From Escherichia phage vB_EcoM_ESCO8, in the sequence record OM386653.1: DNA of 64,000 nt; one strand, 5' to 3'. Position numbers and translations under genes: made by a program. Of the stretch, positions 331 through 15,314 are shown one piece after another. The notes beneath the pieces were generated by a model. It was not told the origin of the DNA, searched no databases, and saw only the letters and a list, made by a program, of their open reading frames with translations. The first letter of the stretch is position 1. The number at the start of each line of letters is the position of its first letter.

Positions 331-360
331 AAAAGGGCGCTTAGTGCGCCCCTTTCTTTT
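331..360 (-). terminator. Rho-independent terminator-like hairpin (bidirectional)
   Basis: GGGCGC-ttagt-GCGCCC stem-loop at 335-351 flanked by A-run and T-rich tract, immediately 3' of minus-strand ORF 369..758. Confidence 0.55.
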
Positions 361-368
361 ACCGTGTA

Positions 369-758: not shown

Positions 759-813
759 AGTATTTACCTTTTTTGATTACCTGGCGGGAAACCATTTCCC
801 GCCTACGTGGTAA

Positions 814-841
814 ATAATACCATATTGGGGATCGGTGTCAA
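814..841 (-). promoter_or_regulatory. sigma70-like early promoter with 5' leader hairpin
   Basis: Minus strand reads TTGACA-16nt-TATTAT; conserved hairpin GGCGGGAAACCATTTCCCGCC (783-803) lies at predicted transcript 5' end upstream of ORF starting at 758. Confidence 0.5.
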
Positions 842-847
842 TACTTT

Positions 848-1234
848 TTATTCAATATAAATCAAATTATCTTCACCAATGTAAGCATGCACCGATGGCA
901 TTAATTTAGCTGCATTTGTTAGGCGGTTGGCGGTGTTAGTAGTGTATATTTCAGGGCGATCCCAAAAGCCTACGCCGTGACCGTTACGGGTGAAATGTAA
1001 GTCATTCCCGATCTGGTTTGCTGTTGCGCCGTCGCTCATTGCCTCAGAGATAGCAGCATCATTGGCATCACAATAAGCCGCTACGTCATGAATGATCCGC
1101 TGATGGGCTTGATCTGAAAAATCATAATCGTCTAAGTTATCAATAAAATAGCCTTCATGATCCCTGGCTGATTCAGCAAAAATAAAGGCTTCTTTATAAC
1201 CGTTGATGATTTCAATAATGATTTCAGTTTTCAT
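848..1234 (-). CDS. hypothetical protein
   Basis: ORF track 128 aa; no domain recognised. Confidence 0.55.
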   Translation of the reverse strand: MKTEIIIEIINGYKEAFIFAESARDHEGYFIDNLDDYDFSDQAHQRIIHDVAAYCDANDAAISEAMSDGATANQIGNDLHFTRNGHGVGFWDRPEIYTTNTANRLTNAAKLMPSVHAYIGEDNLIYIE

Positions 1235-1464
1235 GCTGTACGCTCGACAATAATAATGGTTTGCGGGATCTCGTTTTCTACTACTAACAAGGCTTTTTTC
1301 TGTGTGATAGATATTTTAACACGTTGTAAAGTAGCGGTAAAATCTTTCATTTCATTATGCGCGGATTTAGTGCAATGCCAGATCTCAGGTTTACCTATTT
1401 GCAAGCCGCGTAAAAATTCTGTTTTACCTGTCTTATTCGTGATCATTTGATTCACCTTATCCAA
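1231..1464 (-). CDS. hypothetical protein
   Basis: ORF track 77 aa; start overlaps upstream stop (ATGA). Confidence 0.5.
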   Translation of the reverse strand: MDKVNQMITNKTGKTEFLRGLQIGKPEIWHCTKSAHNEMKDFTATLQRVKISITQKKALLVVENEIPQTIIIVERTA

Positions 1465-1561
1465 TACCGTGGGAAGATAGGATCATGTTAGCCATAGTTG
1501 CAACCAATCCAACCGATAACGCCAGGCCAACTACTACAACCGTGAAAATTTTCTCTAACAT
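1457..1561 (-). CDS. small hydrophobic peptide (34 aa, putative membrane)
   Basis: Manually read ORF MLEKIFTVVVVGLALSVGLVATMANMILSSHGIG, below ORF-track cutoff; single predicted TM helix. Confidence 0.3.
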   Translation of the reverse strand: MLEKIFTVVVVGLALSVGLVATMANMILSSHGIG

Positions 1562-1642
1562 GATTCTACCCTCATTAATGGGCGTTGCCTTATTGCCCCG
1601 CCCTATGTCGTACACTTTACCAGATAACAGCATATTGTCAAA

Positions 1643-1867
1643 CTATTTTTTATAAGGGATCAGTAAACTTCTCGCTATTGCTTCACGTAAACCTTTACTT
1701 TTTATTAGATCTATTGTTGCAGGGTGGCAAGTAAAAGCCTTTGACCATTTTTGATCACCTGGTTTACGGGCGAAAATGTAAACTTCTCCGTCGATTTCAT
1801 CCCAACGAGTATTGCTTGTTAGTTTTTTAAGCGCCATGCTGATTTCTCTTTTAGTTGTGAGCGGCAC
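1643..1867 (-). CDS. hypothetical protein
   Basis: ORF track 74 aa; preceded by conserved leader hairpin 1859-1878. Confidence 0.5.
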   Translation of the reverse strand: MPLTTKREISMALKKLTSNTRWDEIDGEVYIFARKPGDQKWSKAFTCHPATIDLIKSKGLREAIARSLLIPYKK

Positions 1868-1917
1868 TATTGCCGCCCTACGAAATACATTCTACCCGAT
1901 TTATAATTGTTGTCAAA

Positions 1918-2187
1918 CTATTTTTTCAAGCTCGACCAGTCAAAACACGGGGCGATCTCGTTAAAACTTGTACCCTGTAAAGCACATAATTTTTTAGCAA
2001 TAGCCGCCGTAACCTGGCGTTGTACGCGAGGATCTGCTACTGATTGGAGAAAGTAGGCGGCTTTATATGTGATCATGCTTTCGCCTGTTTCCTTGTTAAC
2101 GTGGTGCACGGTTTTAGCCTTATCATCTTTTACCAGGGTGTAACCGGATTCGATGGCCTTGATTGCAACGTCCAAAGATATTTTCAT
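1918..2187 (-). CDS. hypothetical protein
   Basis: ORF track 89 aa. Confidence 0.5.
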   Translation of the reverse strand: MKISLDVAIKAIESGYTLVKDDKAKTVHHVNKETGESMITYKAAYFLQSVADPRVQRQVTAAIAKKLCALQGTSFNEIAPCFDWSSLKK

Positions 2188-2234
2188 GATTTACCTCTTT
2201 ATTGACGGCGGGGAATACTCCCCCGCCTTATTAA

Positions 2235-2435
2235 TTACTCTTCATCGTCGCCGTTATAGTATTCAATGCCGTTTTCATCGGTTACAGTAATGTTAACGCC
2301 ACCGATAGCAACACGATCACGGGCAAACGTCATGGCTTCATTTAAATCTTCAGACCAAAAAATATTGTGACCTTTGCGCGATACGTAAAACATAGTTGGG
2401 ATCATGATTTGTTTCTCTTCTGTTATGAGCGGCAC
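2235..2435 (-). CDS. hypothetical protein
   Basis: ORF track 66 aa; leader hairpin 2427-2446 upstream. Confidence 0.5.
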   Translation of the reverse strand: MPLITEEKQIMIPTMFYVSRKGHNIFWSEDLNEAMTFARDRVAIGGVNITVTDENGIEYYNGDDEE

Positions 2436-2486
2436 TATTGCCGCCCTATGTGATAAACTTTACTACGTTGTTTGCCTAGTGTCAAA

Positions 2487-2771
2487 TTATTTTTTAATGT
2501 TTTGCCCTACAAAATTAATCACTTCCTTAAGCTGTTTCTCAGTCATGATCGTGCCTGGCAATTCTTCTTTGATTTCTTCCGGTAGATAGATATTACCGCG
2601 CCAGGTTAATAAACAACCGTTTTGATCTTCGCAGATAGAATAAGAGAAGATCCACTCATTATCATTCTCAAGCTCCCAAAAGCACAAAAAATCTTCTTTC
2701 CCCAGGTTTTCAACGGTTAAACATAAGCCGCGACGTGCTGCATAGTTGGAAAGTGCTTTTGTGATCTTCAT
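2487..2771 (-). CDS. hypothetical protein
   Basis: ORF track 94 aa; leader hairpin 2791-2812 upstream. Confidence 0.5.
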   Translation of the reverse strand: MKITKALSNYAARRGLCLTVENLGKEDFLCFWELENDNEWIFSYSICEDQNGCLLTWRGNIYLPEEIKEELPGTIMTEKQLKEVINFVGQNIKK

Positions 2772-2825
2772 AGCTTATCTCTTCTTTTAAGGCGGGGGAA
2801 ACCATTTCCCCGCTCTATGAGATAC

Positions 2826-2854
2826 AATATACTACCCGTTCAGTGTGCTGTCAA
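2826..2854 (-). promoter_or_regulatory. sigma70-like early promoter with leader hairpin
   Basis: Minus strand TTGACA-17nt-TATATT followed by hairpin 2791-2812. Confidence 0.5.
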
Positions 2855-3178
2855 TCAATAATCTTCAATATTTTCTACATTGACAAAAGCATGTTTATTT
2901 TCTAAGTTTTCGCCGTACCATTGCCCCATGTTGATTTCTGCGGTGCGCAACCAGGACATGCCGCGTTCTATCTTTTTGCTCGCAATGTCGATCCGGCTTT
3001 TGCATAGTGATTTAGCTTGCAATGTAAAAACACTATTGCCCTGTAATGCTTCCAGGTCATCATGTGCAAGGCGATACTCTTTAAAGCCTGATTCTATCAT
3101 TTCAATCGCATCAAGGAAACGAGCGCGATGATAGAAAAAATCAGAGTTATCCAAATAAACACCGATCACAGATTTCAT
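2855..3178 (-). CDS. hypothetical protein
   Basis: ORF track frame; start moved to internal ATG (MKSVIGV) preceded by AAAGGG RBS. Confidence 0.5.
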   Translation of the reverse strand: MKSVIGVYLDNSDFFYHRARFLDAIEMIESGFKEYRLAHDDLEALQGNSVFTLQAKSLCKSRIDIASKKIERGMSWLRTAEINMGQWYGENLENKHAFVNVENIEDY

Positions 3179-3507
3179 AATTTTACCCTTTTGTTTGCGG
3201 CCTTTGCCGTTTTCAAGATATAGTTTAAAGCATAACAAAAAATTGTCAAGCCTTTAAAGCGTACAACTATAAAACCTATTAAAACACAATGTATAATAAC
3301 ATGGCTATAGTAGCAATACAACATAAAGCCATGCTTGTTTTCCTTCCTTCCTCGTATGCTGGATTTATTACGCTATATTGTACGGGAATAATTTTCATGC
3401 TGTTTCCTTAATGTCTTAAAACGTGGTTTACAATAGAAACAAGCATACAGAAGAAAAAAGATCCTGTCAATAAGATACCGAAAAATAAATGTAAATAGGG
3501 CATGGTT

Positions 3508-3810
3508 TTACTCCTTAAAAAAATCATTGACAATTAAACTGATAACGCCCAGCACCAGATCACCAGGTAGCGCCGCGCTTTCGTTGTTGCTTGTTTGCAC
3601 TTCCTCACTAGTACCAGCATGATAAATCGCATGGTAAGCAATAGTATAATAACCTTTCGTTATTTCTTTAAGATTAATGATTAGCACGTTATTTGTTTCA
3701 TCTTGAAACAATTTAGCGGTGATAGTATTGTTTTCTTTTACACTATCGACTTTTATTGATGGATCATTTACACCAGAAAAAAGAAAAAACGTTTTAGCTA
3801 TGCCGTTCAT
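3508..3810 (-). CDS. hypothetical protein
   Basis: ORF track 100 aa. Confidence 0.5.
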   Translation of the reverse strand: MNGIAKTFFLFSGVNDPSIKVDSVKENNTITAKLFQDETNNVLIINLKEITKGYYTIAYHAIYHAGTSEEVQTSNNESAALPGDLVLGVISLIVNDFFKE

Positions 3811-3857
3811 GTAGTTCTCCTTTGTTGTGTGTATCTTATAACGTGCTTTCTATGTTG

Positions 3858-4259
3858 TCAATCTTTTATCTCGGTGCATTTTGCTAGGGTATACGTTGCA
3901 AGTGCTGACACTAGTTTTTCATTGCTACGATCTGCGGCTGTACTGTGTACTTTTTGAATACTTTTTAACCACGGCGTAAAATTTTGAGTAGTGAGCACAC
4001 TGGTAATAATTTCACATGGCACATCTTCATTTAAGCCATTAACAATAGATTTATCTATTTTTGCCGTTAGTTGTGTAACAGCACCATAAGCGATCATGTG
4101 TGAATCCTCCATGATTTCATCGGGGATCGCATTATTAATAAGCATGACGTTTTCCATTGCATCAACGGCGCTTAATTCTGCTACTGTGGAGGATATCGCC
4201 GCGCTAGATGTTCCAACCATGCCAAAAGAGATTAAACCAGCGATCAATAATTTTTTCAT
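3858..4259 (-). CDS. hypothetical secreted protein (signal peptide)
   Basis: ORF track frame; start at MKKLLIAGLISFGMVGTSSA with GAGG RBS; N-terminal Sec-type signal. Confidence 0.5.
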   Translation of the reverse strand: MKKLLIAGLISFGMVGTSSAAISSTVAELSAVDAMENVMLINNAIPDEIMEDSHMIAYGAVTQLTAKIDKSIVNGLNEDVPCEIITSVLTTQNFTPWLKSIQKVHSTAADRSNEKLVSALATYTLAKCTEIKD

Positions 4260-4267
4260 TTCTTGCC

Positions 4268-4450
4268 TCATATATGTTTTATTGAGATTATATTGTCACT
4301 ATATACAACGTTTTTCAACGTGTCAATAAAAATCTTATTGCCTTCAATCCCCAGGATCACGCCGCTAGTTATGAAGCCATATTGATCACGATATCTGGCG
4401 CATAACCTTTGCCCCTGGGCTAGTGCCTTGCTTATTTCTTCTAATCTCAT
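4268..4450 (-). CDS. hypothetical protein
   Basis: ORF track 60 aa. Confidence 0.4.
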   Translation of the reverse strand: MRLEEISKALAQGQRLCARYRDQYGFITSGVILGIEGNKIFIDTLKNVVYSDNIISIKHI

Positions 4451-4720
4451 TTTAAAGCTCCTGTAAAGCCGTCTAACGTTGATTTATAGGCTTGCCCTGG
4501 CGTTACCATTGCCTATGGGTAACAAGCCTCTATATAAGCTAAAAGGGCGCTTATTGCGCCCTTTTTGTTATTCGTTCCAGTATCTTTTTGTGCTGCGATC
4601 TCTTTTTGTTTTGTTCCGCTTATCGCCTTTTTTGGTGATCTCTTCGTTCCAATTTTTACGCGCCTTGCTGCGGTTGAATTTTTCGATCTGCTGTGATGCG
4701 TTCATGTTTTTTCCTCTTAA

Positions 4721-5080
4721 TTACGCCACGTTATGCTGTTTTGCCAGGGTTACGATCATGCTTGCAATATATAACCAATAATTTTCCCGCTCACGGGTAA
4801 CGGTTGTTTCTTTACTTGTTTCTTTTATGTACTTCCATTCAATTAACAAGTGATCGATCTCGTTATAATCAAAAGCAATATTGATTTCTGACGGTAAACC
4901 TTGTAACCAGGAGGCTATCGCCTTGATCATGTTATGATTGTAACGTTTTTGATTATCGGGATACCAGTATTCAGATTTAAAACGGCGCATCAGTTCGGTG
5001 ATCTTTTCTTTTTCTGTTGTAGTACCATTAAAAGAAATAGCCGACACAATGTAAGTTTTAATTGCTTTTACTGATTTCAT
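4721..5080 (-). CDS. hypothetical protein
   Basis: ORF track 119 aa; leader hairpin 5101-5121 upstream. Confidence 0.55.
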   Translation of the reverse strand: MKSVKAIKTYIVSAISFNGTTTEKEKITELMRRFKSEYWYPDNQKRYNHNMIKAIASWLQGLPSEINIAFDYNEIDHLLIEWKYIKETSKETTVTRERENYWLYIASMIVTLAKQHNVA

Positions 5081-5130
5081 AATCTTATCTCTTTATTGAT
5101 GGCGGGAAACCATTTCCCGCCGTTGTTGTT

Positions 5131-5159
5131 ACTTTACTTATAAATCATGCTACTGTCAA
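5131..5159 (-). promoter_or_regulatory. sigma70-like early promoter with leader hairpin
   Basis: Minus strand TTGACA-17nt-TAAAGT then hairpin GGCGGGAAATGGTTTCCCGCC (5101-5121). Confidence 0.45.
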
Positions 5160-5169
5160 GCGGATATTA

Positions 5170-5337
5170 TTTATTTTTTAACGTTAATGTTCCCAGCTTA
5201 TCAGCGTGACGCAGACCAGGGAAGATCCATTTTCCTGATTCATCTTTTACCGGGGCTTTAAGCGTAGCGCCCAAGTTGGCGGCATTAACTTTACGTGCAA
5301 CGTTGCGAGCGGCTTCACGGGTGGCGAAAGTGATCAT
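5170..5337 (-). CDS. hypothetical small protein (55 aa)
   Basis: Manually read ORF MITFATREAARNVARKVNAANLGATLKAPVKDESGKWIFPGLRHADKLGTLTLKNK with GAGG-type RBS; below ORF-track cutoff. Confidence 0.4.
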
Positions 5338-5408
5338 GGTGTTTTCCTCTTCTCTTTGTTAGGCGGTTGGCTATTCCACCGCCTTGATGAATACAGTTTA
5401 CTCTATTT

Positions 5409-5567
5409 TTATTTCTTTGCAACTACTTTTATATTTTCTTTCTTTGCCTCTTCCACCTGATCCGCCCACTGCTTACCCCACGTTTGAGCGTTATAGTGAT
5501 ATTGACAAAGAGCAACGCCACGTTTTAAACCAGAGATAGACTTTTTACCACATTGGCAAGTTTTCAT
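5409..5567 (-). CDS. hypothetical small Cys-rich protein (52 aa, zinc-ribbon-like)
   Basis: Manually read ORF MKTCQCGKKSISGLKRGVALCQYHY...; CxC...CxxH pattern; AAGGG RBS. Confidence 0.4.
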   Translation of the reverse strand: MKTCQCGKKSISGLKRGVALCQYHYNAQTWGKQWADQVEEAKKENIKVVAKK

Positions 5568-5578
5568 TTTGTGATCCC

Positions 5579-5842
5579 TTAGTTGATAATTGTCAAAGTA
5601 AAATCATAATCTTTTGACAGTTTATATTGCACCTTGTTACCGTATATGTCACCTTTACGTAAAGATCCACGGATACCGATAACATCCTTCACGTCTTTTA
5701 AATTTTTCACGCCTGTAATGTCTTTGTTGAAATACTCGTCATCTGAAAATAAAACTTGACTTGCATTTTTTAACAGTGTGCGGATATTAGCCATTTTGAT
5801 AATCTCTCTTACTATGAGCGGCACTATTGCCGCCCTATGCAT
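5579..5842 (-). CDS. hypothetical protein
   Basis: ORF track 87 aa; hairpin 5806-5825 lies inside the 5' end of this ORF as tracked, so the true start may be an internal ATG. Confidence 0.5.
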   Translation of the reverse strand: MHRAAIVPLIVREIIKMANIRTLLKNASQVLFSDDEYFNKDITGVKNLKDVKDVIGIRGSLRKGDIYGNKVQYKLSKDYDFTLTIIN

Positions 5843-5881
5843 TACATTTTACTGATTTTAGTTATCTTGTCAAGATTATTT

Positions 5882-6109
5882 TTAGTTTAATCCATCCAGG
5901 CACAACAAGCGATCAACATTCAGATCGGTTAGGCTAATCGTTGGCACCTGGTAGGATTCGATGTACTCAACGCTCGACCATTGCCCGAAGTTAGCGACCG
6001 CCCAGCTATTCAAGGAAGAGTGAAGATCATCCCCTTTCTTCTCGGTGATAACTGCTACTACCTGGGAGCTTCCAACCGTACCGGATACGCGAACAATAAC
6101 GATAGCCAT
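5882..6109 (-). CDS. hypothetical protein
   Basis: ORF track 75 aa; leader hairpin 6123-6143 upstream. Confidence 0.5.
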   Translation of the reverse strand: MAIVIVRVSGTVGSSQVVAVITEKKGDDLHSSLNSWAVANFGQWSSVEYIESYQVPTISLTDLNVDRLLCLDGLN

Positions 6110-6154
6110 AATGATAACCTTTCTTTGATTTGGCGGGAAACCATTTCCCGCCCT

Positions 6155-6182
6155 ATGTGATATATCTTACACTAATTTAAAA
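6155..6182 (-). promoter_or_regulatory. sigma70-like early promoter with leader hairpin
   Basis: Minus strand TTGACA-16nt-TAAGAT followed by hairpin 6123-6143. Confidence 0.5.
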
Positions 6183-6286
6183 CGTTGTCAAATTATTTTC
6201 TATTTCTTCCGTAATAGCCTAATTTATGATCTAAGCTAAAACGTTTTGTGAGATAGGTCGAACGATGTTTCATTTTTATATCTCCT

Positions 6287-6526
6287 TTACATTCCAACCA
6301 TCGCGGCGCGGATTGCAGTTTTACTGAACTTGTAACCGTCTGGCGTTTTATCTTGATCCATACTTTCAAGAAATAACATCATATCACGCGCTGCGTCATT
6401 CTTATTGGTGTTAGCTGCGATAAATTCACGCGCAAGATTATAAAAACCTTCATCATTGTTGATCCAAAGGCTTACATTCCAATGAGTTTTGTTTTTGTGA
6501 CCTAAGAACATTTTTGATTTAGCCAT
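6287..6526 (-). CDS. hypothetical protein
   Basis: ORF track 79 aa; leader hairpin 6551-6567. Confidence 0.5.
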   Translation of the reverse strand: MAKSKMFLGHKNKTHWNVSLWINNDEGFYNLAREFIAANTNKNDAARDMMLFLESMDQDKTPDGYKFSKTAIRAAMVGM

Positions 6527-6614
6527 GATGTTAATCTCTTTTTCAGTGAGGCGGGAACTATTCCCGCTCTCTATGTAATACAGTTTACTCTTTTTATTCG
6601 TGCTGTCAATGCTT

Positions 6615-6980
6615 TTATAAATCTTTTTTACGTTTTACATCGCTTGCATGACTGTATACAGTGATCCCATTGTCACGGCAAAAACGGGAAAGGTAGGCAT
6701 AATTTGAAAACTCTTTACCTTCCAGGTTGATAACCTTGCTAAATTCTTCCATTGCTACAGTGTCAAAGTGATCCCCGTATCCATATTGGAACGGCACGTT
6801 TACTACTTCGATCAGTTTACCGCCGATCTCAACGTCAACCATCAAAGAGAAATAAGTATTACCATAAGACTTTTGAAACCAGCGACGGGCGCTAATATGT
6901 ACCGCTTCAATGCTGGATAGTTCAATTTTAGCAGTGTTAGCCAGGGTAGCATAAGCAGAAACATTGATATTTTTAGCCAT
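6615..6980 (-). CDS. hypothetical protein
   Basis: ORF track 121 aa. Confidence 0.55.
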   Translation of the reverse strand: MAKNINVSAYATLANTAKIELSSIEAVHISARRWFQKSYGNTYFSLMVDVEIGGKLIEVVNVPFQYGYGDHFDTVAMEEFSKVINLEGKEFSNYAYLSRFCRDNGITVYSHASDVKRKKDL

Positions 6981-7075
6981 AGTCTTTAATCTCTTTTGAT
7001 TAGTTAGGAGTATTCCCGATAAAAGTTATTATGCTTGTACTATCGTTCGTTGTCAATAGCACAAGACTAAAACTT

Positions 7076-7255
7076 TTAACGATAATCATCATAGGCTTTA
7101 TTGACCTGGCGAATATAGCATTCAAAAGCTAGATCAATAGATTTATATTCACGGATATAATCACCATAGGAAACCACATACATTTCTATAGCTTCCTCAT
7201 ATGCCAAGATGATAGAATCTAAACCTACGATCTCAGTCTTTGCAATAATAGCCAT
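7076..7255 (-). CDS. hypothetical small protein (59 aa)
   Basis: Manually read ORF MAIIAKTEIVGLDSIILAYEEAIEMYVVSYGDY...; just below ORF-track cutoff. Confidence 0.35.
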   Translation of the reverse strand: MAIIAKTEIVGLDSIILAYEEAIEMYVVSYGDYIREYKSIDLAFECYIRQVNKAYDDYR

Positions 7256-7401
7256 GCTTTTATTCCTTAGTAATGTTTCAATCTATATAAGCATTATAGC
7301 TTACTGATTTCAGGTGTCAAGTGATTTTTTATTTCACCTTATGGGGCGTTGCCCCGCTTTATGTGGTACATATTACGGGGCTTGTTTGCATATGTCAAGC
7401 C

Positions 7402-7947
7402 TTACACAATACAATTTTCATAATTTTTTAGGGCTTGTCTTTTTTCCTCTTCTGTCGGCATGTATGGCTGGATCTCTTCCTCTTCCAGGGTAGGCATGAT
7501 TTCTTCCTCTTCCTCCTGGTCTTCCTCTTGCGCTACGGCAACAAGTTTATTGATCTTCTCCTGGGCTTTAATCAATTTTGCATCTAGCACCATTTTAGCG
7601 GTGTTGTATACCGTCCATGCCATGCGTTTTTCTTCGTATGCTTTATCTAGTGCGGCTAATTTAGCGGGATACTCTTCTAACACCTTAAAAGCCGGATCAA
7701 TGCTATATAAGGGATTATTTTTAGCGTCATCGCTTGGATCTGCGGCGCTTGCAATGTCAGCGTTACCATTTGCCAGCCAACCAGGGCGAACGGATCGCGT
7801 CTTTGTGTGCCCGTTGCTCTTTGCCGCTCGATTCCCTATCTGCTCCCCGCTGTACCCTTCCATGTGATCGATCATGTCATCTGGTATTATGCGCGGATCA
7901 TTAGCGTCATGCTTTACCCATGACTGGATCACATATTCACGCCCCAT
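7402..7947 (-). CDS. hypothetical protein with highly acidic E-rich segment
   Basis: ORF track 181 aa; poly-Glu stretch; antisense ORF 7460..7867 judged shadow. Confidence 0.55.
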   Translation of the reverse strand: MGREYVIQSWVKHDANDPRIIPDDMIDHMEGYSGEQIGNRAAKSNGHTKTRSVRPGWLANGNADIASAADPSDDAKNNPLYSIDPAFKVLEEYPAKLAALDKAYEEKRMAWTVYNTAKMVLDAKLIKAQEKINKLVAVAQEEDQEEEEEIMPTLEEEEIQPYMPTEEEKRQALKNYENCIV

Positions 7948-8209
7948 GTTCGTTCGCCTCTTCTGTTAGTAGTTTACACACCTTAAACATGCTTGCCGCG
8001 TCTTTTGACGGTAGCCAGCCTATGCGATACACTCCAGGATCTGGATTCGTTATATCTGTTAATTGAGCGTTACGATGATTAAAGATAGTGTAACCGCCAC
8101 CAGCACGGGGATAAACATTATCTTTAAACCTGATAGCGTATCTCGCCAGGTTGAACGTTGTAGCATGTTCAAAAGCGATCACATTATCAAAAACTTTTAG
8201 AAAAAACAA
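7937..8209 (-). CDS. hypothetical protein
   Basis: ORF track 90 aa. Confidence 0.5.
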   Translation of the reverse strand: MFFLKVFDNVIAFEHATTFNLARYAIRFKDNVYPRAGGGYTIFNHRNAQLTDITNPDPGVYRIGWLPSKDAASMFKVCKLLTEEANEHGA

Positions 8210-8436
8210 GATTATCCTCCCCAGCGTTTAAAGCCCGTTGCACGGTTATTTTTTAACTCTCGTTTTAGTCTCTTGCAACGGTTTACAAGTGCAAACCGTG
8301 CCGGAGTTGTAACAGTAGCGCCGTTTTTGGTGTGAATACTCATTACATATTGTTTCATAAAGTTTTATCCTATGTAAGCGGGAATAGTTCCCGCTTTAAG
8401 ATAGCTTATCAGGTTTTAGTGCAATGTTAACCGTTT

Positions 8437-8799
8437 TTATTCGTAAATTTTACCGCTTTCTACCCATACCATAACACGGCGCATGTTATCCCATGCATCT
8501 TGTCGCAGATTTAAGGCATGCAATTCTTCGGTTGTGCTCATACCTGGTACGGGCTTGCTATATGTTACAAAGAGATCGCCAGCATATTCATAAGCCAGGG
8601 TAAGATCACATTGAATCATCTTTTTAAGCATAGCATTAAGCATCATATTAGCGGCATGTTGATCACGTTTTAGCGGTAGCGTTGCGATCTGTGAGCGATA
8701 GCTTTCGATCCGTGCATCCACTGCATCACGTGGAAGATTTTTCACGTCGTCGCGGAAAGATACCAGGTTTAACATGATAGTATTGATTTGCTTGCTCAT
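8437..8799 (-). CDS. hypothetical protein
   Basis: ORF track 120 aa; leader hairpin 8822-8843 upstream. Confidence 0.55.
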   Translation of the reverse strand: MSKQINTIMLNLVSFRDDVKNLPRDAVDARIESYRSQIATLPLKRDQHAANMMLNAMLKKMIQCDLTLAYEYAGDLFVTYSKPVPGMSTTEELHALNLRQDAWDNMRRVMVWVESGKIYE

Positions 8800-8885
8800 T
8801 GCATTACCCTTTCTTTGATTTGGCGGGAAACCATTTCCCCGCCTTATGTGGTATATATTACAAAATTATTTTTAAGTGTCAAGCC

Positions 8886-9158
8886 TTAAAGCAAAAACGC
8901 TACATCTTGCGCTTTTAGTGTAGTGTCGATCATTTTCGGGCTTTTATAATCCACAAAGCGCGCGGTTTTTTCAATAACGAAGCCGAGATAATCTTGTTTA
9001 TTGAAATTACATTCTTTTTTAAATGTTTCCCGTGCCACGGTGATCGCTGCATCCAGGGATAAACGCCCATCAATATTGATGTTAGCGAAAGATCCGCCAC
9101 CGCGCATAGGTTTACCAGTGATGCCAGCTACGATCATTGATGCGCTATATGATGCCAT
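8886..9158 (-). CDS. hypothetical protein
   Basis: ORF track 90 aa; leader hairpin 9181-9200 upstream. Confidence 0.55.
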   Translation of the reverse strand: MASYSASMIVAGITGKPMRGGGSFANINIDGRLSLDAAITVARETFKKECNFNKQDYLGFVIEKTARFVDYKSPKMIDTTLKAQDVAFLL

Positions 9159-9210
9159 GATTATTTCTCTCTTCTGTTATGAGCGGCACTATTGCCGCCC
9201 TATGTGATAC

Positions 9211-9238
9211 ATCTTATCAGATTAAAAAACGTTGTCAA
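9211..9238 (-). promoter_or_regulatory. sigma70-like early promoter with leader hairpin
   Basis: Minus strand TTGACA-16nt-TAAGAT followed by hairpin GGGCGGCAATAGTGCCGCTC (9181-9200). Confidence 0.5.
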
Positions 9239-9246
9239 GAATATTT

Positions 9247-9342
9247 TTAAAAGATAATAACCGCTACTACAATCCAAAATGGAACGGCTAGAATGATAGC
9301 GTTAATCGTTCCAACCGTCAAGCTGTTTTCTTTCTTGATCAT
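9247..9342 (-). CDS. small hydrophobic peptide (31 aa)
   Basis: Manually read ORF MIKKENSLTVGTINAIILAVPFWIVVAVIIF; first ORF downstream of promoter 9470-9498. Confidence 0.3.
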   Translation of the reverse strand: MIKKENSLTVGTINAIILAVPFWIVVAVIIF

Positions 9343-9469
9343 CGTTATCAACCTTTTATAAGTAATGTTATTGTGACGGTGGATTGTGGAGATCCTCACC
9401 TTTGCCCGTCCTGCATTGCGCCCTCCTTTTGTTTATTGTCGTTGTGCCTCGCCCCCCTCGACAAGATGA

Positions 9470-9498
9470 ATAATACGCTACCAGGTGAGGAACGTCAA
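9470..9498 (-). promoter_or_regulatory. near-consensus sigma70 promoter (leftward, head of early gene array)
   Basis: Minus strand TTGACG-17nt-TATTAT; GC-rich ~120-nt leader follows. Confidence 0.5.
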
Positions 9499-9532
9499 CC
9501 CCTTTTTTAATCTTTTTTCATTTCTTTTTTGC

Positions 9533-9562
9533 TTGCTATCTATAAAGGAAAGGGGCTATTAT
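9533..9562 (+). promoter_or_regulatory. sigma70-like promoter (rightward)
   Basis: TTGCTA-18nt-TATTAT upstream of ORF starting 9610. Confidence 0.4.
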
Positions 9563-9609
9563 CTTTCTACCGCGCCAACCAGGGCGCACATCAAAGAAAG
9601 GGCGATACC

Positions 9610-9876
9610 ATGACAAATACTACTTTACACCTCATGCACTCATTAGGCTGGCAAGGCGGCACGGTGCACCAGGTAGCAAGCGCAACGGGCTTAAAGGTTG
9701 AAACCGTTCTCAACCTGGGCGATCATAAGGTGGAAGAAATAGATCATTTTGATACGTTCGCAAATGGTTATCTATGGGCTTGCAGTGGCGGCGGGGAAAG
9801 CAAGATCCCGCCAGGGGCGCGGGGCGACATGTATTTTTGGCTAGGTGTCCTATCCTGGCAAGAAAACAAAAAATAA
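9610..9876 (+). CDS. hypothetical protein (88 aa) in GC-rich island
   Basis: ORF track frame 9529..9876 trimmed to ATG with AAGGG-type RBS; local GC content clearly above surrounding AT-rich genes. Confidence 0.4.
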   Translation: MTNTTLHLMHSLGWQGGTVHQVASATGLKVETVLNLGDHKVEEIDHFDTFANGYLWACSGGGESKIPPGARGDMYFWLGVLSWQENKK

Positions 9877-9878
9877 TC

Positions 9879-9907
9879 TTGACAAGCCCAGGGATCGGGC
9901 TTATACT
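9879..9907 (+). promoter_or_regulatory. near-consensus sigma70 promoter (rightward)
   Basis: TTGACA-17nt-TATACT; spacer contains inverted repeat AGCCC/GGGCT; no obvious CDS downstream before repeat region. Confidence 0.5.
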
Positions 9908-10140
9908 GTTTTACATACAGAAGAGGAAGCGCCACCCCCACGGCGTAAAGGCGGGGCTAACATACCAGGGCACTACTGGTTGGAAGGTTGATCGCCGGTA
10001 GCTCGTCTAAAATAAATTTGTAAAGAAATGTAAAGATAAAAATAATCGCTTGCTTTTGTTGTTGGTTATGCTATTCTTATTGTATGGCGAGGGGACACGG
10101 GAGCGCGAGACAAACACCGCCCCTGCGCGTTATTCTCTAA

Positions 10141-10250
10141 ATGAGAAAATTCTCATTTGCTAATGATTCTCATTCTCTTACTGAGAATGATTATCACTTA
10201 CATACTTAAATGATAATGATTCTCATTTACAAATGAAAATGATTATCATA
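10141..10250. repeat. Cluster of Fur-box-like / ATGAGAA-TTCTCAT palindromic repeats
   Basis: Repeated units AATGATTCTCATT, GAGAATGATTATCA, AATGATAATGATTCTCATT, AATGAAAATGATTATCA resembling GATAATGATAATCATTATC. Confidence 0.45.
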
Positions 10251-10269
10251 CGCACACCCATAAAAACAC

Positions 10270-10480
10270 GAAATTGAACTTTTCATTTTTGATTTTTCTA
10301 CGGAAAAAGGCAAAAAACTTTAAATAAACTGGGGAATTTTTAAAAAATTGAAGTTTTCATTTTCAAAATCTGGATAGAAATACGTACAAAAACTTTAAAT
10401 AATTTTGACCAAACTTGAACTTTTCATTTTCAAAATTTGTACCCAAAAATCTGTAAAAACTTTAAATAATTTTGTCCTTT
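10270..10480. repeat. Three tandem ~70-bp direct repeats (iteron-like)
   Basis: Unit TTGAAC/G-TTTTCATTTTCAAAAT...AACTTTAAATAA recurs at 10274, 10348, 10415 with 67-74 bp period. Confidence 0.6.
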
Positions 10481-10688
10481 TTATAAAAATGATTTTACTG
10501 TTCTGTTATAAGTAGTAGTTAAGAGATAGTATGCCTTTTAAAGATCAGATACCATAGTCAAACAAACAAATTAAATACTTTATTAACAGAGTACAGAATA
10601 ATATTTACTCTGGATATATTATTCAGAGGGTGGATTTCCGTACATGAAACCCACACCCCTTTTTATAAAAATAAAAATTTTCAAAATA

Positions 10689-11240
10689 TCAGGAAATATC
10701 AGATTGTGCTTTTAGATAAACAGCAAGGTCTGTATGCCATTTTCCTAAAAGATTTTGTCCTTTCCAACAGTCCTTATTTTCCACATCACGATCCCACATT
10801 CCCATTTTGATACCATAAATAGAATCATAAGGGCTTGCCTCTACGAACTCCTTATCTGCGTAAGCGATAAGTTTATTTTTGAGATCTTCATTTTGTGTGT
10901 ATTTAAGATACAAACCACGCTTGACAATCTTCTCCCGTAAAGAAGTCCAAGTAGCTTCATCGTAATCTTTAACTAATCTACCTAGTCGCTTATAATATGC
11001 CTGTTCTTTTTCTCCTGTATATCTTAGATCTCCGGTTAAAATAGAAGATGCAATGTTGTAATCATAAAACAAACATGCTTTTCTCCACATCATATATTGT
11101 TCCACACAAGTAAATTCAACAGAACTTGTAATAGAATTATTATACTTGGGAGCTAAAGGTTCAATAAAAGATGATAGATACCAGTTGCTAAATTCATCTT
11201 TTGCCGAGAAGAAGAACACATACTTATCAGTAATCCGCAT
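10689..11240 (-). CDS. NADAR-domain protein (YbiA-like)
   Basis: 183 aa; motifs FFFS..EFSNWY, VEQY..W.KA, and C-terminal GIKMGMW...G.N.LGK.H align with E. coli YbiA-type NADAR pattern. Confidence 0.65.
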   Translation of the reverse strand: MRITDKYVFFFSAKDEFSNWYLSSFIEPLAPKYNNSITSSVEFTCVEQYMMWRKACLFYDYNIASSILTGDLRYTGEKEQAYYKRLGRLVKDYDEATWTSLREKIVKRGLYLKYTQNEDLKNKLIAYADKEFVEASPYDSIYGIKMGMWDRDVENKDCWKGQNLLGKWHTDLAVYLKAQSDIS

Positions 11241-12413
11241 TTACATCTCCTTACTGTATACTAATTTGCCACCATATTGTGTAATAATTTTTTGAAGATT
11301 TTCCAAATCAGAAACACTTACTGTTTCTGTATAACCATCTTTCAACTCTCTTGCCGTTAAAATACCAGTTTTTAATTTTTTCTTTATAGCTCTTTCAGCA
11401 GCCCTACATTGTTTCACTGTGCTAAAATCATATAAACAAATACGCCCCATAAAAAACAGATTACGGCTCTTTTGACCGTTTAATCGTCTATCGCTATCTT
11501 TAGATATACCAAACTTAAGAGCAACTATAATATCATTATCTTTAACAATATTAATATATAATTGCTGTTGATTATGACCAGCACACTGTGGACAACCTTG
11601 ACCGAGGCTTAATAAATTACGAGCACTCCCTATCTGCTCACCATGCACAAGACAAAGATATTTAAACTTACCTATAGAAGAGGGTTTGGTAATCCAATCT
11701 ACCCAGACATACCCTTTCCCTTCTACTTCCTTTTTTACCCTATAGGTGATCTGGTCTTCTGTATACTGATAGTTCCCACAACGACACGGAATATACCCTT
11801 GTTTAAGGTTATGTCCTGCAGAGTAAAATTTACCATCACAAACACCTGCTTGAACATATTCATCATGGGAGCAAACAGGACACTCAACCATCCATACTGC
11901 ATCACGCTTGTTACGTTTCCCTGTATTGGTGAAGATAGTGCCTTCCTTAAATTCCCCTGTAGAAAAGAAATCTGCAATATGTTGATCGTCGGACATTGTT
12001 TGTCTCTCCCTCTTACATTGTGGACAACCGCTACCACGTTTAAAATTGTTAATACTTGTAGTATCCCATTTATTACCACAATGACACAACAAATCAAGTT
12101 TTGTTTTATTCCCTTTCCATTCTCCCACGTACCCTAACACCTGATACCCCCTCTTCTGTGCTATCTCTTCCAAGATCGGCAATTCTGTTTCCCATGTTAA
12201 CGGCTTCTTACCAGAACAGATAGGACAACCACGTCCCTTCTTAAAATCATTAATGTTCGTGGTGTTCCACTCTCCATGTTTAGGACAAGATAGCTTAAGT
12301 TTAGTCTTGTTCCCTTTCCATTCACCAACATAACCCAGGATTTGAATATTGCGATTTTTAGCAAGGGGTGTTAATTCTTCTTTATATTGTTCCCATGATT
12401 TTGGTGCTGTCAT
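11241..12413 (-). CDS. T5orf172 (GIY-YIG-like) domain protein with tandem zinc-ribbon modules
   Basis: 390 aa; three repeats of GYVGEWKGNKTKL..C..HG.W.TT.IN.FK.G.GCP.C followed by C-terminal LYINIV..GIS...RRL segment typical of T5orf172. Confidence 0.55.
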   Translation of the reverse strand: MTAPKSWEQYKEELTPLAKNRNIQILGYVGEWKGNKTKLKLSCPKHGEWNTTNINDFKKGRGCPICSGKKPLTWETELPILEEIAQKRGYQVLGYVGEWKGNKTKLDLLCHCGNKWDTTSINNFKRGSGCPQCKRERQTMSDDQHIADFFSTGEFKEGTIFTNTGKRNKRDAVWMVECPVCSHDEYVQAGVCDGKFYSAGHNLKQGYIPCRCGNYQYTEDQITYRVKKEVEGKGYVWVDWITKPSSIGKFKYLCLVHGEQIGSARNLLSLGQGCPQCAGHNQQQLYINIVKDNDIIVALKFGISKDSDRRLNGQKSRNLFFMGRICLYDFSTVKQCRAAERAIKKKLKTGILTARELKDGYTETVSVSDLENLQKIITQYGGKLVYSKEM

Positions 12414-12450
12414 CTATTACTCCTCTTATTAAATCTGGCATCAATACAAG

Positions 12451-12476
12451 AAAACCCGCCGGAGCGGGTTTTTATT
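12451..12476 (-). terminator. Rho-independent terminator (bidirectional)
   Basis: AAAACCCGC-cgga-GCGGGTTTT stem-loop with flanking T/A runs, 3' of ATPase gene. Confidence 0.65.
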
Positions 12477-12487
12477 TGCTGGCTTAC

Positions 12488-13615
12488 TTAAAACACGCTT
12501 GCCAAAGTTGCACCATTGGTGATAGTTGGTTCCAGAACAATACGGAAAGAATCTTCTGGATCATCACTAAACACAACGATTTTACCGCCTGTAATAAGAT
12601 CTGCTTTCATTTTTGTCGCATTCAATGGAATTCGAGCATCTCCTTCATCATCAAAAACCACGTAAGAGCTATTAGCAAGGGCTTCTTTAGAGTCTGCATC
12701 ACTTGGAGATGACAAGTACACGTCTAGTGTGCACGAGCCACCTAAAAAGATTGCAGGTGTGAAGTTATGCCAACTAGATACCCAGCTAACTTTCTGAAGT
12801 TTCCCATTAATAACAACGCTGCTGATATCCCACTTATTACCACCACCCAAAGAAACGCCCATCATAGAGATGCATTCTTTAAAGGATAAATCAGGGTAGA
12901 AATTAAGTTCTTCTACTATACCTTGGATCACATCAAAGGACAACTCTAAACTTACATCCCAAAGCCTTTGGAAATTATCAAAGTGTGCTTTGTTATCCAG
13001 GTTTTTATCTAAATAGTCAATCATAGTTTCTAGTGAGATTTTATCATAATTAAAATTATAAAACACACGACTAGGACGATTTAGAAAGAATTCAGAGATA
13101 AAGCCACTGTTTTTAGTTAGAATAAACAGTTTATTACCACTGCCAGTACCATCTAACAAAGTGAGAAGTGCTTCTTGATCTTGTTTCTTCTCATACACTT
13201 TATCAAACTCGTCAAAAATAATCACTGCTTTGTCGGTGATCTTGCTAATAAGTTCAATGAAATTAGCATCGCTGTAGGCTTGAGTAACCATAATAGTTGG
13301 AATACCTTCTTCTACAAGGTCACGACTAATGAGTTTGGCTAACATAGTTTTACCACTACCCTTAGTTCCTGTCAGAAGCAATCCTGTATTTTTACCTTGT
13401 GCACTCCGGCGATGGAATGTACGGATAACGTGATTTGCTCGTTTTTCTGTTTCACCATACAGAACATCCGGTACACCTGTCAGATTACCACGGCTTAAAA
13501 AATAATTGCCAAGGGGATCACGACTAACAGTATAGAATCCAGGTGGAAGATAGTTAGATTCCACGCCCATATCTTTATTTACACTTACAATATCACCATA
13601 AATCGTGTATTTCAT
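12488..13615 (-). CDS. AAA-type ATPase (paralog A)
   Basis: 375 aa; Walker A GTKGSGKT, Walker B IIFDEFDK; paralogous to 28181..29341. Confidence 0.7.
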   Translation of the reverse strand: MKYTIYGDIVSVNKDMGVESNYLPPGFYTVSRDPLGNYFLSRGNLTGVPDVLYGETEKRANHVIRTFHRRSAQGKNTGLLLTGTKGSGKTMLAKLISRDLVEEGIPTIMVTQAYSDANFIELISKITDKAVIIFDEFDKVYEKKQDQEALLTLLDGTGSGNKLFILTKNSGFISEFFLNRPSRVFYNFNYDKISLETMIDYLDKNLDNKAHFDNFQRLWDVSLELSFDVIQGIVEELNFYPDLSFKECISMMGVSLGGGNKWDISSVVINGKLQKVSWVSSWHNFTPAIFLGGSCTLDVYLSSPSDADSKEALANSSYVVFDDEGDARIPLNATKMKADLITGGKIVVFSDDPEDSFRIVLEPTITNGATLASVF

Positions 13616-13626
13616 TTTAACCCCTT

Positions 13627-14064
13627 TTATTTTTGTTGAGATGAACGAATTAAATCAGCAGCAAATTCAATCAGATACACTTTTGGTGCAATAATGATTT
13701 TTAGCCAATCAAAATTCGAAAAGAAAATAACAAATCCTAAAAAGAAAAAGAAAGCACAGACAACAAGGCCAACAATAGGTAAAGCAGATACTTCACCATA
13801 GCGATCTCGTGACCACAGGCATTCTTTATCTTTAATTGCTTTTACGAGGTTCCGCACAGCAATAAAAGTAATAAACATAAAGCAAATACTAAAAAGTTGC
13901 CATAAACCTGCGGATACTGCTTTCCACACTAATAGTTGATGGATTACTTCTGGAATTTGTTGTTTTCCAAACTCTACAACATCACTCATTGTTTGAATAG
14001 TGACGTTAACCATGTTCAGAAGTACATCCGTTGCTTTATCTGCGATTGCGTTTGTTTTACTCAT
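13627..14064 (-). CDS. hypothetical membrane protein
   Basis: ORF track 145 aa; multiple hydrophobic helices. Confidence 0.55.
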   Translation of the reverse strand: MSKTNAIADKATDVLLNMVNVTIQTMSDVVEFGKQQIPEVIHQLLVWKAVSAGLWQLFSICFMFITFIAVRNLVKAIKDKECLWSRDRYGEVSALPIVGLVVCAFFFFLGFVIFFSNFDWLKIIIAPKVYLIEFAADLIRSSQQK

Positions 14065-14078
14065 TCTTTATTCCTCAC

Positions 14079-14252
14079 TTACCTTTTAAGGAAACCAATC
14101 ATAATGAAGAACCACATCCAGGCAGGAGAGATAATAAAGCCAAAGAAACCGCAAATAACCGCTTTCTTAATCTCTTCCAGACAACCCACCAGGAAAAGAA
14201 CGAGTGAGACTACAATCCAGATAGCCATAAATACTGTAACAAAGAAACTCAT
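14079..14252 (-). CDS. small membrane protein (57 aa)
   Basis: Manually read ORF MSFFVTVFMAIWIVVSLVLFLVGCLEEIKKAVICGFFGFIISPAWMWFFIMIGFLKR; GGAGAAAGG RBS. Confidence 0.4.
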   Translation of the reverse strand: MSFFVTVFMAIWIVVSLVLFLVGCLEEIKKAVICGFFGFIISPAWMWFFIMIGFLKR

Positions 14253-14272
14253 ACCTTTCTCCCGTCTGTATT

Positions 14273-14524
14273 TTAAAATTCAACCACCACTTTATCGAGG
14301 TGCTCTGCTTCAACTTGATCTAATGTTAACACCTCAACTAAACCCTTGTCAATACCTAATTTAATAACATCAACATATTGTCCAAACAGATCCTGGATAG
14401 ATATCTTGTGTTCGACAACAACAACCACTTCATTCCCTTTTGTGAATTCTCTCCATACACGTCCACATTTGAAAATAAAGTCTGCTTCATCTGCTGTTAT
14501 CATTTTAGGTTTGATACTTAACAT
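14273..14524 (-). CDS. hypothetical protein
   Basis: ORF track 83 aa. Confidence 0.5.
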   Translation of the reverse strand: MLSIKPKMITADEADFIFKCGRVWREFTKGNEVVVVVEHKISIQDLFGQYVDVIKLGIDKGLVEVLTLDQVEAEHLDKVVVEF

Positions 14525-14862
14525 TATAAAACTCCGTACTCTGGTTCAATATTATGCTTACGACAAATGGCATCCCAACGCTCATTACCAAAACTTCTTC
14601 CATGTAGTGCATCGTATGCGAAATGTTCTGCCAACCACATTACTACACCATCTGGTTCAGTGTCAAGCGGAATTCGAAACTCTCGATCATAACGCATACG
14701 GAGAACAAACTCATTACCGTCTTCCAGCAGGTGCATATGACTTTTAGCTCGTGATGCCAAATCGAAGAAAGGAGGTTCATCGTTCCAAACGTGACGCTCA
14801 ACTTCAACACCATGATCAACTACCAAAGTGGCAATTACTTCTCTCATTTCTTTACTAAACAT
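14524..14862 (-). CDS. hypothetical protein
   Basis: ORF track 112 aa. Confidence 0.55.
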   Translation of the reverse strand: MFSKEMREVIATLVVDHGVEVERHVWNDEPPFFDLASRAKSHMHLLEDGNEFVLRMRYDREFRIPLDTEPDGVVMWLAEHFAYDALHGRSFGNERWDAICRKHNIEPEYGVL

Positions 14863-14960
14863 ATTAAAGCCCTCCTAATTTAATAGTCCACTCAACACCT
14901 GTTAGATAACTTCTTTACACAAGTATACTAAGAACATATAAGTGATTTTACCAGATATGT

Positions 14961-15314
14961 TTAGCTCCACAAATTATGGAAATACTTAGCAAACAAAATA
15001 CGACCTTCTAAACGCTCTTGCCGTTGTTTTTCATTAACTTCTTCAGGTGGAGTTGAATCCTTAAAAGAGGACTCCATTTTTTCAAGAATTTCTAACCAGT
15101 GTTCTGCTGCTCGTTCTTCCATATAAGGTAGATAGTCACCTTTAGCGTGTGGGTACATCCGACGAAGTAACCCGCTAGGAATTTTAACATTGTTTGTGGC
15201 TATCACTTTTGCACGATATGCAGAAAGTGCGTTGTAGATCAGTTTACTTAGTGTCACATCCAGATCAAGAAGATCACTCTCTTCAAATTGAATTTCATCG
15301 TGTACAATTTTCAT
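14961..15314 (-). CDS. hypothetical protein
   Basis: ORF track 117 aa. Confidence 0.55.
   Translation of the reverse strand: MKIVHDEIQFEESDLLDLDVTLSKLIYNALSAYRAKVIATNNVKIPSGLLRRMYPHAKGDYLPYMEERAAEHWLEILEKMESSFKDSTPPEEVNEKQRQERLEGRILFAKYFHNLWS

Follow-up and report, generated by a model that had tools for sequence, protein, structure and literature searches.

A spacing-conserved array of paired sequence boxes in phi92-like and related phages is a candidate replication origin

What is the function of three tandem repeats that lie in non-coding DNA of Escherichia phage vB_EcoM_ESCO8? We analyzed a 64,000-nt stretch of this genome (sequence record OM386653.1; hereafter the window), in which the repeats occupy positions 10270 to 10480. 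A first-pass annotation, made from the letters alone, had offered iterons, a DNA unwinding element, clustered regulatory sites, or a phage-specific promoter array, possibly near a genome terminus. The part of this interpretation that concerns iteron-like or clustered sites beside easily unwound DNA is supported in kind, whereas the promoter array and the terminus are not supported. Comparison with related phages suggests that the repeats are a protein-binding, cis-acting DNA array whose core differs between lineages and whose geometry is unusual and strongly conserved. Among the possible functions we rank first, tentatively, an iteron-like array that is bound by a lineage-specific phage protein and serves most likely as a transcription-activated replication origin. 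We found no description of these repeats in the literature.

A repeat search of the window confirmed three direct copies, at 10270 to 10336 (U1), 10344 to 10410 (U2), and 10411 to 10477 (U3), and their start-to-start distances of 74 and 67 bp bear out the proposed spacing of 67 to 74 bp. Identity to the middle copy is 61, 100, and 81% for copies 1, 2, and 3, respectively, and Tandem Repeats Finder reports copies 2 and 3 with a period of 67 and a score of 178. Each unit consists of an X box (10270 to 10295, 10344 to 10369, and 10411 to 10436) followed by a Y box (10312 to 10327, 10388 to 10402, and 10455 to 10469), which packs six related boxes, three X and three Y, into 210 bp at one locus. 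The Y cores, CTTTAAATAA, begin at 10318, 10393, and 10460 and thus span 75 + 67 = 142 bp. The palindrome TTTTTATAAAAA closes the array at 10478 to 10489, and the palindrome AATTTTTAAAAAATT, which resembles it, lies between U1 and U2 (10335-10349); the evidence for them is the repeat search and the sequence itself. The claimed AT-richness holds (77% A+T over the array), and the open reading frame (ORF) list confirms that the flanking gene blocks both run leftward. The non-coding region, put at about 1.3 kb in the first-pass annotation, is shorter: positions 9610 to 9876 carry an 88-codon plus-strand ORF, and about 810 bp (9877 to 10688) remain non-coding.

Positions 9300 to 11300 of the window are nearly identical, as the reverse complement, to phage outra (MN850645.1; 145,482 bp), a phi92-like Justusliebigvirus of the Stephanstirmvirinae (2001 versus 2002 bases with a 1-nt gap in Megablast), and they are 97 to 99% identical to about 55 relatives including phi92. 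The genome-wide counts and rankings that follow refer to the 145-kb outra genome, in which the array is found once. Box A (TTGAACTTTTCATTTTCAAAAT) gave two matches at up to three mismatches versus 0.00 expected from shuffles. All three perfect copies of box B (AAAACTTTAAATAA) are inside the array, as are three of the five exact genomic copies of the 11-mer AAACTTTAAAT. In short form, the Y box is AAAAACTTTAAATAA. Two database records, inny and alia, carry a "repeat_region" annotation over the array without explanation. Searches for homology with E. coli DNA and with plasmid origins found none, the sole plasmid matches being Fur-box-like sequences in Moraxella plasmids. At window position 10311, in the A-run that precedes the first Y box, there is one A fewer than in all five close relatives compared. 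This homopolymer-length difference sits at the edge of a conserved box and may account for the 1-nt gap relative to MN850645.1.

Alignment with relatives, which the first-pass annotation had named as a check, shows three units with the same span kept in two subfamilies and 16 lineages. The Stephanstirmvirinae regions compared came from Phapecoctavirus (phAPEC8, tuntematon, and phiWec188), Citrobacter phage Tr1, and two Klebsiella phages. A gapless alignment of 16 units from six lineages reveals a conserved X box, AAAnTTTAaATTTTggTTTT, then about 16 to 25 variable bases, and then a conserved Y box, AAAAAcTTTAAATAA; box A of outra is a diverged X box in this alignment. The core AAAnTTTAAAT is common to X and Y, and the start-to-start distance from X to Y is 44 to 46 bp in all lineages. 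Every Stephanstirmvirinae lineage examined has three units, the middle one being degenerate in Phapecoctavirus. Within the genus, the few variable columns fall outside the X and Y motifs, except for the 1-nt difference in A-run length at the 5′ edge of the first Y box. Resemblances by eye to OmpR, sigma-28, sigma-E, and MotA boxes failed across units or lineages.

Nine Vequintavirinae-like lineages (PVP-SE1, BIS47, Av-05, and six IMG/VR contigs) also have three direct repeats in the equivalent place, built on another sequence. Two pattern scans of IMG/VR viral contigs yielded mostly chance matches, and only about 10 true relatives were left after a BLAST filter. Units of the Vequintavirinae type end in TGAAAAnC-CGATCGAG-AAC, and their core is palindromic, TCGATCGA, extended to TCTCGATCGAGA in some units. 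Box-to-box distances are 67 + 74/75 or 63 + 78 in the Vequintavirinae-like lineages and 75 + 67 in the Stephanstirmvirinae, and the first and third boxes thus lie 141 to 143 bp apart nearly everywhere (138 to 139 bp in Phapecoctavirus). An A-run before the core and A/T palindromes at the unit boundaries are common to both types, and we take the arrays to be homologous on that account. By this comparison, the core has evidently changed in concert in all copies between lineages. Some annotated minus-strand "hypothetical protein" ORFs run over the CGATCGAG-type repeats, namely PVP-SE1 genes 202 and 203 (L006 2279-2706) and BIS47_205 (L136 1808-2152), and are probably spurious. A further motif, (GGG)A(A)TTTGAGATA(A), is repeated two or three times close behind the array of Phapecoctavirus and of BIS47 and is absent from outra; it is also present in a T5-like repeat region (coordinates L004 2590-2640, L135 2180-2215, L136 2055-2090, and L010 1990-2035).

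The DNA that carries the array is physically distinctive. By nearest-neighbor energies, 10320 to 10719 comes second among the least stable 400-bp stretches of the genome, behind only the terminus-proximal non-coding region, and the array ranks in the top 0.6% of 211-bp windows for instability. In a wedge model that we wrote ourselves and that is approximate, predicted curvature climbs sharply at 10300 and drops at 10490. Its maximum there, 21.9 degrees per turn, is exceeded by only two other peaks in the genome (mean 6.3, standard deviation 3.4). The ratio of end-to-end to contour length, 0.733, falls in the top 0.9%. Elsewhere, predicted curvature in JLBYU50 is like that in outra, other lineages are moderate (mean of 9 to 10 versus 6), and phi1_175008 shows little.

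These features (unique boxes, rigid spacing, and unstable, curved DNA) support in kind the proposal of iterons or clustered sites by unwindable DNA, and the switch of the core between lineages amid conserved spacing likewise favors an array of binding sites. Because the architecture is constant while all cores change in concert, we suggest a protein and site that co-evolve, as the O protein and iterons of lambdoid phages do. Phages with different cores share a host (Av-05 and the phi92-like phages both infect E. coli), which makes a host protein an unlikely ligand and favors a phage factor. The cores are palindromic (TTTAAA and TCGATCGA), which points to a dimeric DNA binder rather than to recognition of RNA. 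In the mechanism that we propose, a phage-encoded, probably dimeric, sequence-specific DNA-binding protein would recognize the X and Y boxes. The three box pairs, with 46 bp from X to Y and 142 bp from the first to the third Y, would assemble one higher-order nucleoprotein complex on intrinsically curved, easily melted DNA, and this complex would constitute the phage replication origin, switched on by host RNA polymerase transcribing from the promoter-like sites P1 and P2 (and also P3 in Vequintavirinae) that lie to its left. Three of these steps we infer: that a protein binds the boxes, that it is phage-encoded, and that the complex initiates replication.

Several observations are consistent with an origin. 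Clustered direct repeats at a single locus and adjoining AT-rich DNA of the unwinding type are what an iteron origin would have, and promoters (consensus matches) directed into ORF-free, AT-rich DNA with a plus-strand terminator are what an origin of the T7 or T4 type would have. Phages of this group have a T7-like replisome, with a family A polymerase and a gp4-like primase-helicase (PMC3606486). The authors of the rV5 study found only transcription-linked changes in their skew analysis and did not locate a replication origin (PMC3606486), and our literature search turned up no origin described for these phages. The array is, in our assessment, the best current candidate.

A number of points weigh against an origin. 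The unit period of 67 to 75 bp is far above the 17 to 22 bp of classical iterons, and no cluster of DnaA boxes, integration host factor (IHF) sites, or GATC sites was found at the locus; a single isolated TTTTCCACA lies inside the NADAR gene to the right, and one Fis-like match lies at 10596, with no Fis cluster. The support from curvature is tempered by the approximate nature of the wedge model. Base skews do shift at the locus, but a bidirectional origin would be expected to shift them the other way: plus-strand GC skew is about -0.08 on the left (window 1-9000) versus about -0.21 on the right (11000-15000), and AT skew is about -0.14 left versus about 0 right of the surrounding module, though both gene blocks are leftward. 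This shift may reflect only different gene classes, or else replication. No initiator gene was recognized among the candidates examined, gp224 and an AAA+ ATPase. The former, the 88-aa ORF noted above (9610 to 9876, plus strand; phi92 gp224 family, PHROG 19316, a family with no assigned function, annotated in relatives), was rejected as the array binder since the same type of protein stands beside both types of box. Its N terminus looks helix-turn-helix-like by eye only, and its AlphaFold2 model (predicted local distance difference test score of 93) is all-helical, with no match to a PDB entry or a DNA-binding fold. The AAA+ ATPase, gp221 (12488-13615, two genes away), gave weak, sub-threshold matches to Hda/DnaC/Orc-like models; it is confined to the Stephanstirmvirinae plus unrelated phages, and in the latter no repeat array lies beside it.

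The closest parallels among known systems are instructive in both directions. At the origin of phage lambda, the O protein binds four direct repeats of 19 bp; the iterons are bent, the flank is AT-rich, activation comes by transcription from pR, and in lambdoid phages the iteron sequences co-vary with the O protein. The array resembles it in its once-per-genome direct repeats, curvature, adjacent unstable AT-rich DNA, and promoters reading in, and resembles the lambdoid family in combining a constant architecture with a lineage-specific repeat sequence. It differs in that its units are 67 to 75 bp long with two boxes, rather than contiguous 19-bp iterons, and lie outside any initiator gene. 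The T7 origin comprises promoters 1.1A and 1.1B plus an AT-rich region, and T4 oriF and oriG combine a promoter with an unwinding element. Tandem one-strand promoters followed by very AT-rich non-coding DNA, together with the T7-like replisome, recall these origins; the promoters here are of the host sigma-70 type, and whereas the T7 and T4 origins need no repeated protein-binding boxes, conserved boxes and spacing are the salient features here. Direct repeats with a small palindromic core also make up the centromere-like arrays of plasmids and prophages, such as F sopC (43-bp repeats) and R1 parC (11-bp iterons), where a dimeric protein binds the repeats and co-evolves with its site, as we propose for the present array. 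Unlike those loci, the array has only three units and no ParA/ParB-type genes nearby, and a virulent phage has no obvious need of partition. Phage lambda cosB (R3, R2, and R1, sites of the terminase small subunit, bent by IHF) is similar in having three spaced sites on bent DNA over about 100 to 150 bp; the present array differs in lying about 12 kb from the reported genome end and in having no IHF site.

The array is one element of a rightward module whose plus-strand order is the same in all 16 lineages: P1, a candidate structured RNA (RNA1), a GTAAA-N5-GTAAA tandem, P2, a second hairpin region (RNA2), Fur-like palindromes, the array, a variable spacer of about 190 bp, and a hairpin with a U-run. 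Vequintavirinae alone have a third promoter-like site, P3, between the Fur-like palindromes and the array, directly upstream of the first unit; its predicted start is no more than a few bases from the beginning of the array. P1, P2, and P3 are consensus matches, and the transcription context is predicted from them. A promoter scan placed P1 at 9879 to 9907 on the plus strand (TTGACA-17-TATACT, 11/12), with equivalents in phAPEC8, Tr1, phi1_175008, and BIS47. P2, read from the sequence at 10050 to 10077 on the same strand (TTGCTT-16-TATTCT), has equivalents in all lineages (TTGACC/TTGATC/TTGCAA-16/17-TAATAT/TATTAT/TATATT). A plus-strand terminator-like hairpin at 10624 to 10666, followed by UUUUUAU, folds at -11.8 kcal/mol (z -2.1), and equivalents with a U-rich tail are present in phAPEC8 (z -3.8) and Tr1. 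The prediction is thus that host RNA polymerase enters the array from its left side and stops before the convergent NADAR gene (10689-11240, minus strand; Pfam, E 2e-36). The sole protein gene that is syntenic with the module in Stephanstirmvirinae, Av-05, and L255 is gp224.

RNA1 (9914 to 10010, plus strand) is GC-rich and about 84% identical across many genera; RNA1-like blocks occur, never annotated, in myophages of about 145 to 150 kb (Klebsiella, Cronobacter, Pectobacterium, and Salmonella phages). Its RNAalifold consensus has the stems CGCC/GGCG and GGCGG/UCGCC, one covarying pair (GC:9, AU:6), and a hairpin of variable length, and its single-sequence minimum free energy (MFE) is unexceptional (z -0.32). 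RNA1 is a candidate new phage non-coding RNA. RNA2, a GC-rich hairpin region in a conserved block downstream of P2 (10085 to 10130, plus strand), folds at -16.4 kcal/mol (z -0.47) and has two sequence variants among lineages. A search of 8500 to 11500 against Rfam at E<=1 returned no family, save a chance match at 9164. The elements annotated as "PHIRE promoters" in phAPEC8 (L004 38-57, 927-946, and 1566-1585) are GC-rich hairpins, GTAGGGCGGCAATGGTGCCGCTC, and are more plausibly read as 5′ RNA structures than as promoters; a sigma-70-like promoter is annotated as well in a single case (L004 1303-1341), and there a hairpin of similar kind follows it closely downstream.

Two elements of the module resemble sites for host regulators. 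The GTAAA-N5-GTAAA tandem upstream of P2 (10020 to 10034, plus strand) is the sole copy in the 145-kb genome, is kept in 16 of 16 lineages with N5 varying, and resembles the CpxR consensus. Its gap to the P2 -35 hexamer is 5 to 6 or 14 to 15 bp, which preserves the helical phase. The arrangement suggests that a host response regulator may activate the phage promoter P2. By motif match, five Fur-box-like palindromes (AATGAGAAAATTCTCATT, TGCTAATGATTCTCA, TGAGAATGATTATCA, TGATAATGATTCTCA, and TGAAAATGATTATCA) occupy 10140 to 10248. The 7-1-7 motif TGATAATNATTATCA has four matches within 91 bp versus 0.9 expected in the whole 64 kb, and 19-mer Fur-like matches of 15 to 16/19 occur only in this cluster, plus one at 36445. 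With up to two mismatches, the 7-1-7 Fur box TGATAATnATTATCA is found four times in outra and one to four times in every lineage. A second cluster of four Fur-like boxes, of the TGAgAATGATTaTCA type and including one perfect TGATAATGATTATCA, lies at 111981-113119 of the outra record, in non-coding DNA to the left of the window that adjoins the reported terminal repeat. We found no report in the literature of Fur boxes in lytic phage genomes.

A similarity search of the region in distant mode unexpectedly matched T5-like phages. In a non-coding region of about 2 kb, phage Gostya9 carries a series of the extended palindromes seen here, AAATGnGAATnATTnTCATT (locus L010 1340-1610), up to 26/26 identical to those of phAPEC8 over TTAAATGCGAATCATTATCATTTGCA; there the palindromes adjoin DnaA boxes and then T5-specific direct repeats. 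This region is described as the injection-stop (iss) region, with its "bewildering array" of palindromes and repeats; the paper that describes it makes no mention of Fur (bioRxiv 10.1101/866236). Our locus is like T5 Repeat Region 3 in being a large non-coding block in which a cluster of Fur-like palindromes is followed by a family-specific direct-repeat array. It is unlike it in that the T5 repeats, GTGCAAATCCGA, number about nine, are irregularly spaced, and are unrelated to X and Y, and in that the T5 region has DnaA boxes and lies in a 10-kb terminal repeat. The DnaA-box pairs in large inverted repeats of an iss-type region have no counterpart here: the locus has no DnaA-box cluster and lies outside any terminal repeat.

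How do other functions compare? The main rival, to which we give a modest chance, is an operator or roadblock, in which a phage regulator on the six boxes would shut off or attenuate the early rightward non-coding transcription from P1, P2, and P3 or insulate it from the convergent NADAR operon and would have no role in replication. The signatures of protein binding are the same for this function as for an origin, and an operator would suit the closeness of the Vequintavirinae array to the predicted P3 start (a few bases at most), the position of the array between convergent transcription units with a plus-strand terminator, and a surrounding module rich in regulator-like (CpxR-like and Fur-like) sites. 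Stephanstirmvirinae, however, lack P3, and their nearest promoter is 200 to 300 bp from the array; there is no coding sequence downstream to regulate, and the invariant 142-bp span and curved DNA exceed the needs of a simple roadblock. Predicted plus-strand transcription of the array, with a terminator after it and no ORF, also invites an RNA-level function, for example three motifs in a long non-coding transcript that act as a sponge for an RNA-binding protein or another RNA, and in several lineages the Y box is often succeeded by stretches that contain GGA. We regard this as improbable: RNAalifold finds zero conserved pairs among the 16 units, the MFE of the array is worse than that of shuffles (z +0.79), the short perfect DNA palindromes of the cores cannot form RNA hairpins, and P3 is absent in Stephanstirmvirinae. 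The core also switches between same-host phages, and the RNA1 and RNA2 types do not follow that switch. A functionless product of slippage or duplication in an AT-rich spacer seems highly improbable. AT-rich intergenic DNA does generate tandem duplications, and copies 1 and 2 share only 61% identity, yet three units of the same span persist in 16 lineages of two subfamilies, despite flanking non-coding DNA diverged beyond alignment, and the core change is concerted over all copies. Least credible is a tandem promoter array, whether for host sigma-70 or phage-specific. The X boxes of outra contain a -35-like TTGAAC/TTGAAG that aligns with the -35 of P3 in BIS47, but no unit has an acceptable -10 at 16 to 18 bp (TCTACG, TGGATA, and TGTACC), and a scan of the units of outra, phAPEC8, Tr1, and phi1_175008 gave no recurrent sigma-70-type promoter. 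The phage-specific version fares no better, the motif not being found upstream of other genes: a 14-mer searched at <=2 mismatches has 7 sites versus 4.0 expected, its exact matches being only the three array copies, and the 11-mer AAACTTTAAAT is not enriched genome-wide.

Two further alternatives concern packaging and DNA entry. Three spaced sites on bent DNA recall the lambda cosB R sites and SPP1 pac boxes, and several database records start or end within about 0.1 to 2.5 kb of the region, as a terminus or terminase recognition (pac/cos-like) site might have it. The nearby record starts are about what random linearization would give (about 8 expected in 244), and the only close relative with a terminal repeat determined from reads, BME3, has its 342-bp repeat elsewhere. 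That repeat, determined by PhageTerm (PMC12210895), maps to window coordinates -2080..-1739, some 2 kb before the window begins and about 12 kb from the array, and belongs to a different non-coding region of 1.75 kb. The suggested proximity to a genome terminus is hence very doubtful. In phiWec187 (LC739536.1), a 148-bp repeat at both record ends maps to window 3376-3523, inside early genes, and looks like an assembly overlap; the published statement that such genomes "terminate with direct terminal repeats" needs caution for that reason. Quite unlikely, in our judgment, is an architectural or host-factor landing pad like the T5 injection stop signal, in which Fur-like palindromes and repeats would form a nucleoprotein knot for DNA entry, early genome handling, or titration of a host protein. 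The near-identical Fur-like palindromes followed by family-specific direct repeats in Gostya9 speak for it, as does the second set of four Fur-like boxes beside the outra terminal repeat. Against it, the similarity to T5 is confined to the palindromes, and the X/Y repeats have no T5 counterpart; early genes run towards the terminus here and away from it in Gostya9; and between the array and the left end of the window the largest early ORF is 181 aa, with none the size of T5 A1. The T5 iss mechanism is itself unproven. An elaboration of the origin reading, unlikely as a whole though we hold it somewhat more probable than a landing pad, is that the control module is host-wired and the array is its output device: a switchable phage protein on the 142-bp box array would fire or license replication, and the transcription that feeds it would be gated by Fur and, through the GTAAA tandem at P2, by CpxR, the envelope-stress regulator of the host.

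Some features of the neighboring genes are recorded here. Beside the NADAR gene, the "endonuclease" at 11241-12413 (minus strand) carries three CapR-homology domains along with a weak match to T5orf172, and its product appears to resemble a homing endonuclease. The gene is 1173 bp long in the window and in inny and 1398 bp in alia, a variation that suggests a mobile or variable insert. On the other side of the module, the 120-aa ORF at 8437-8799 contains two short tandem repeats at 8601-8714 (period 12, 4.2 copies; period 21, 2 copies).

For the biology of these phages, the array offers a precise, genome-unique, and deeply conserved candidate origin with a testable geometry: spacings of 46 and 142 bp and a switchable core. 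The module around it offers candidate sites for host regulators (CpxR-like and Fur-like) and two unannotated candidate RNAs, in a group of rV5/phi92-like myophages that are widely used as therapy and biocontrol candidates. The common Fur-like palindromes tie this module to the long-unexplained injection-stop region of T5. If the host-wired arrangement were true, virulent coliphages would be able, through multi-copy Fur boxes, to sense the iron regulator of the host or to titrate it.

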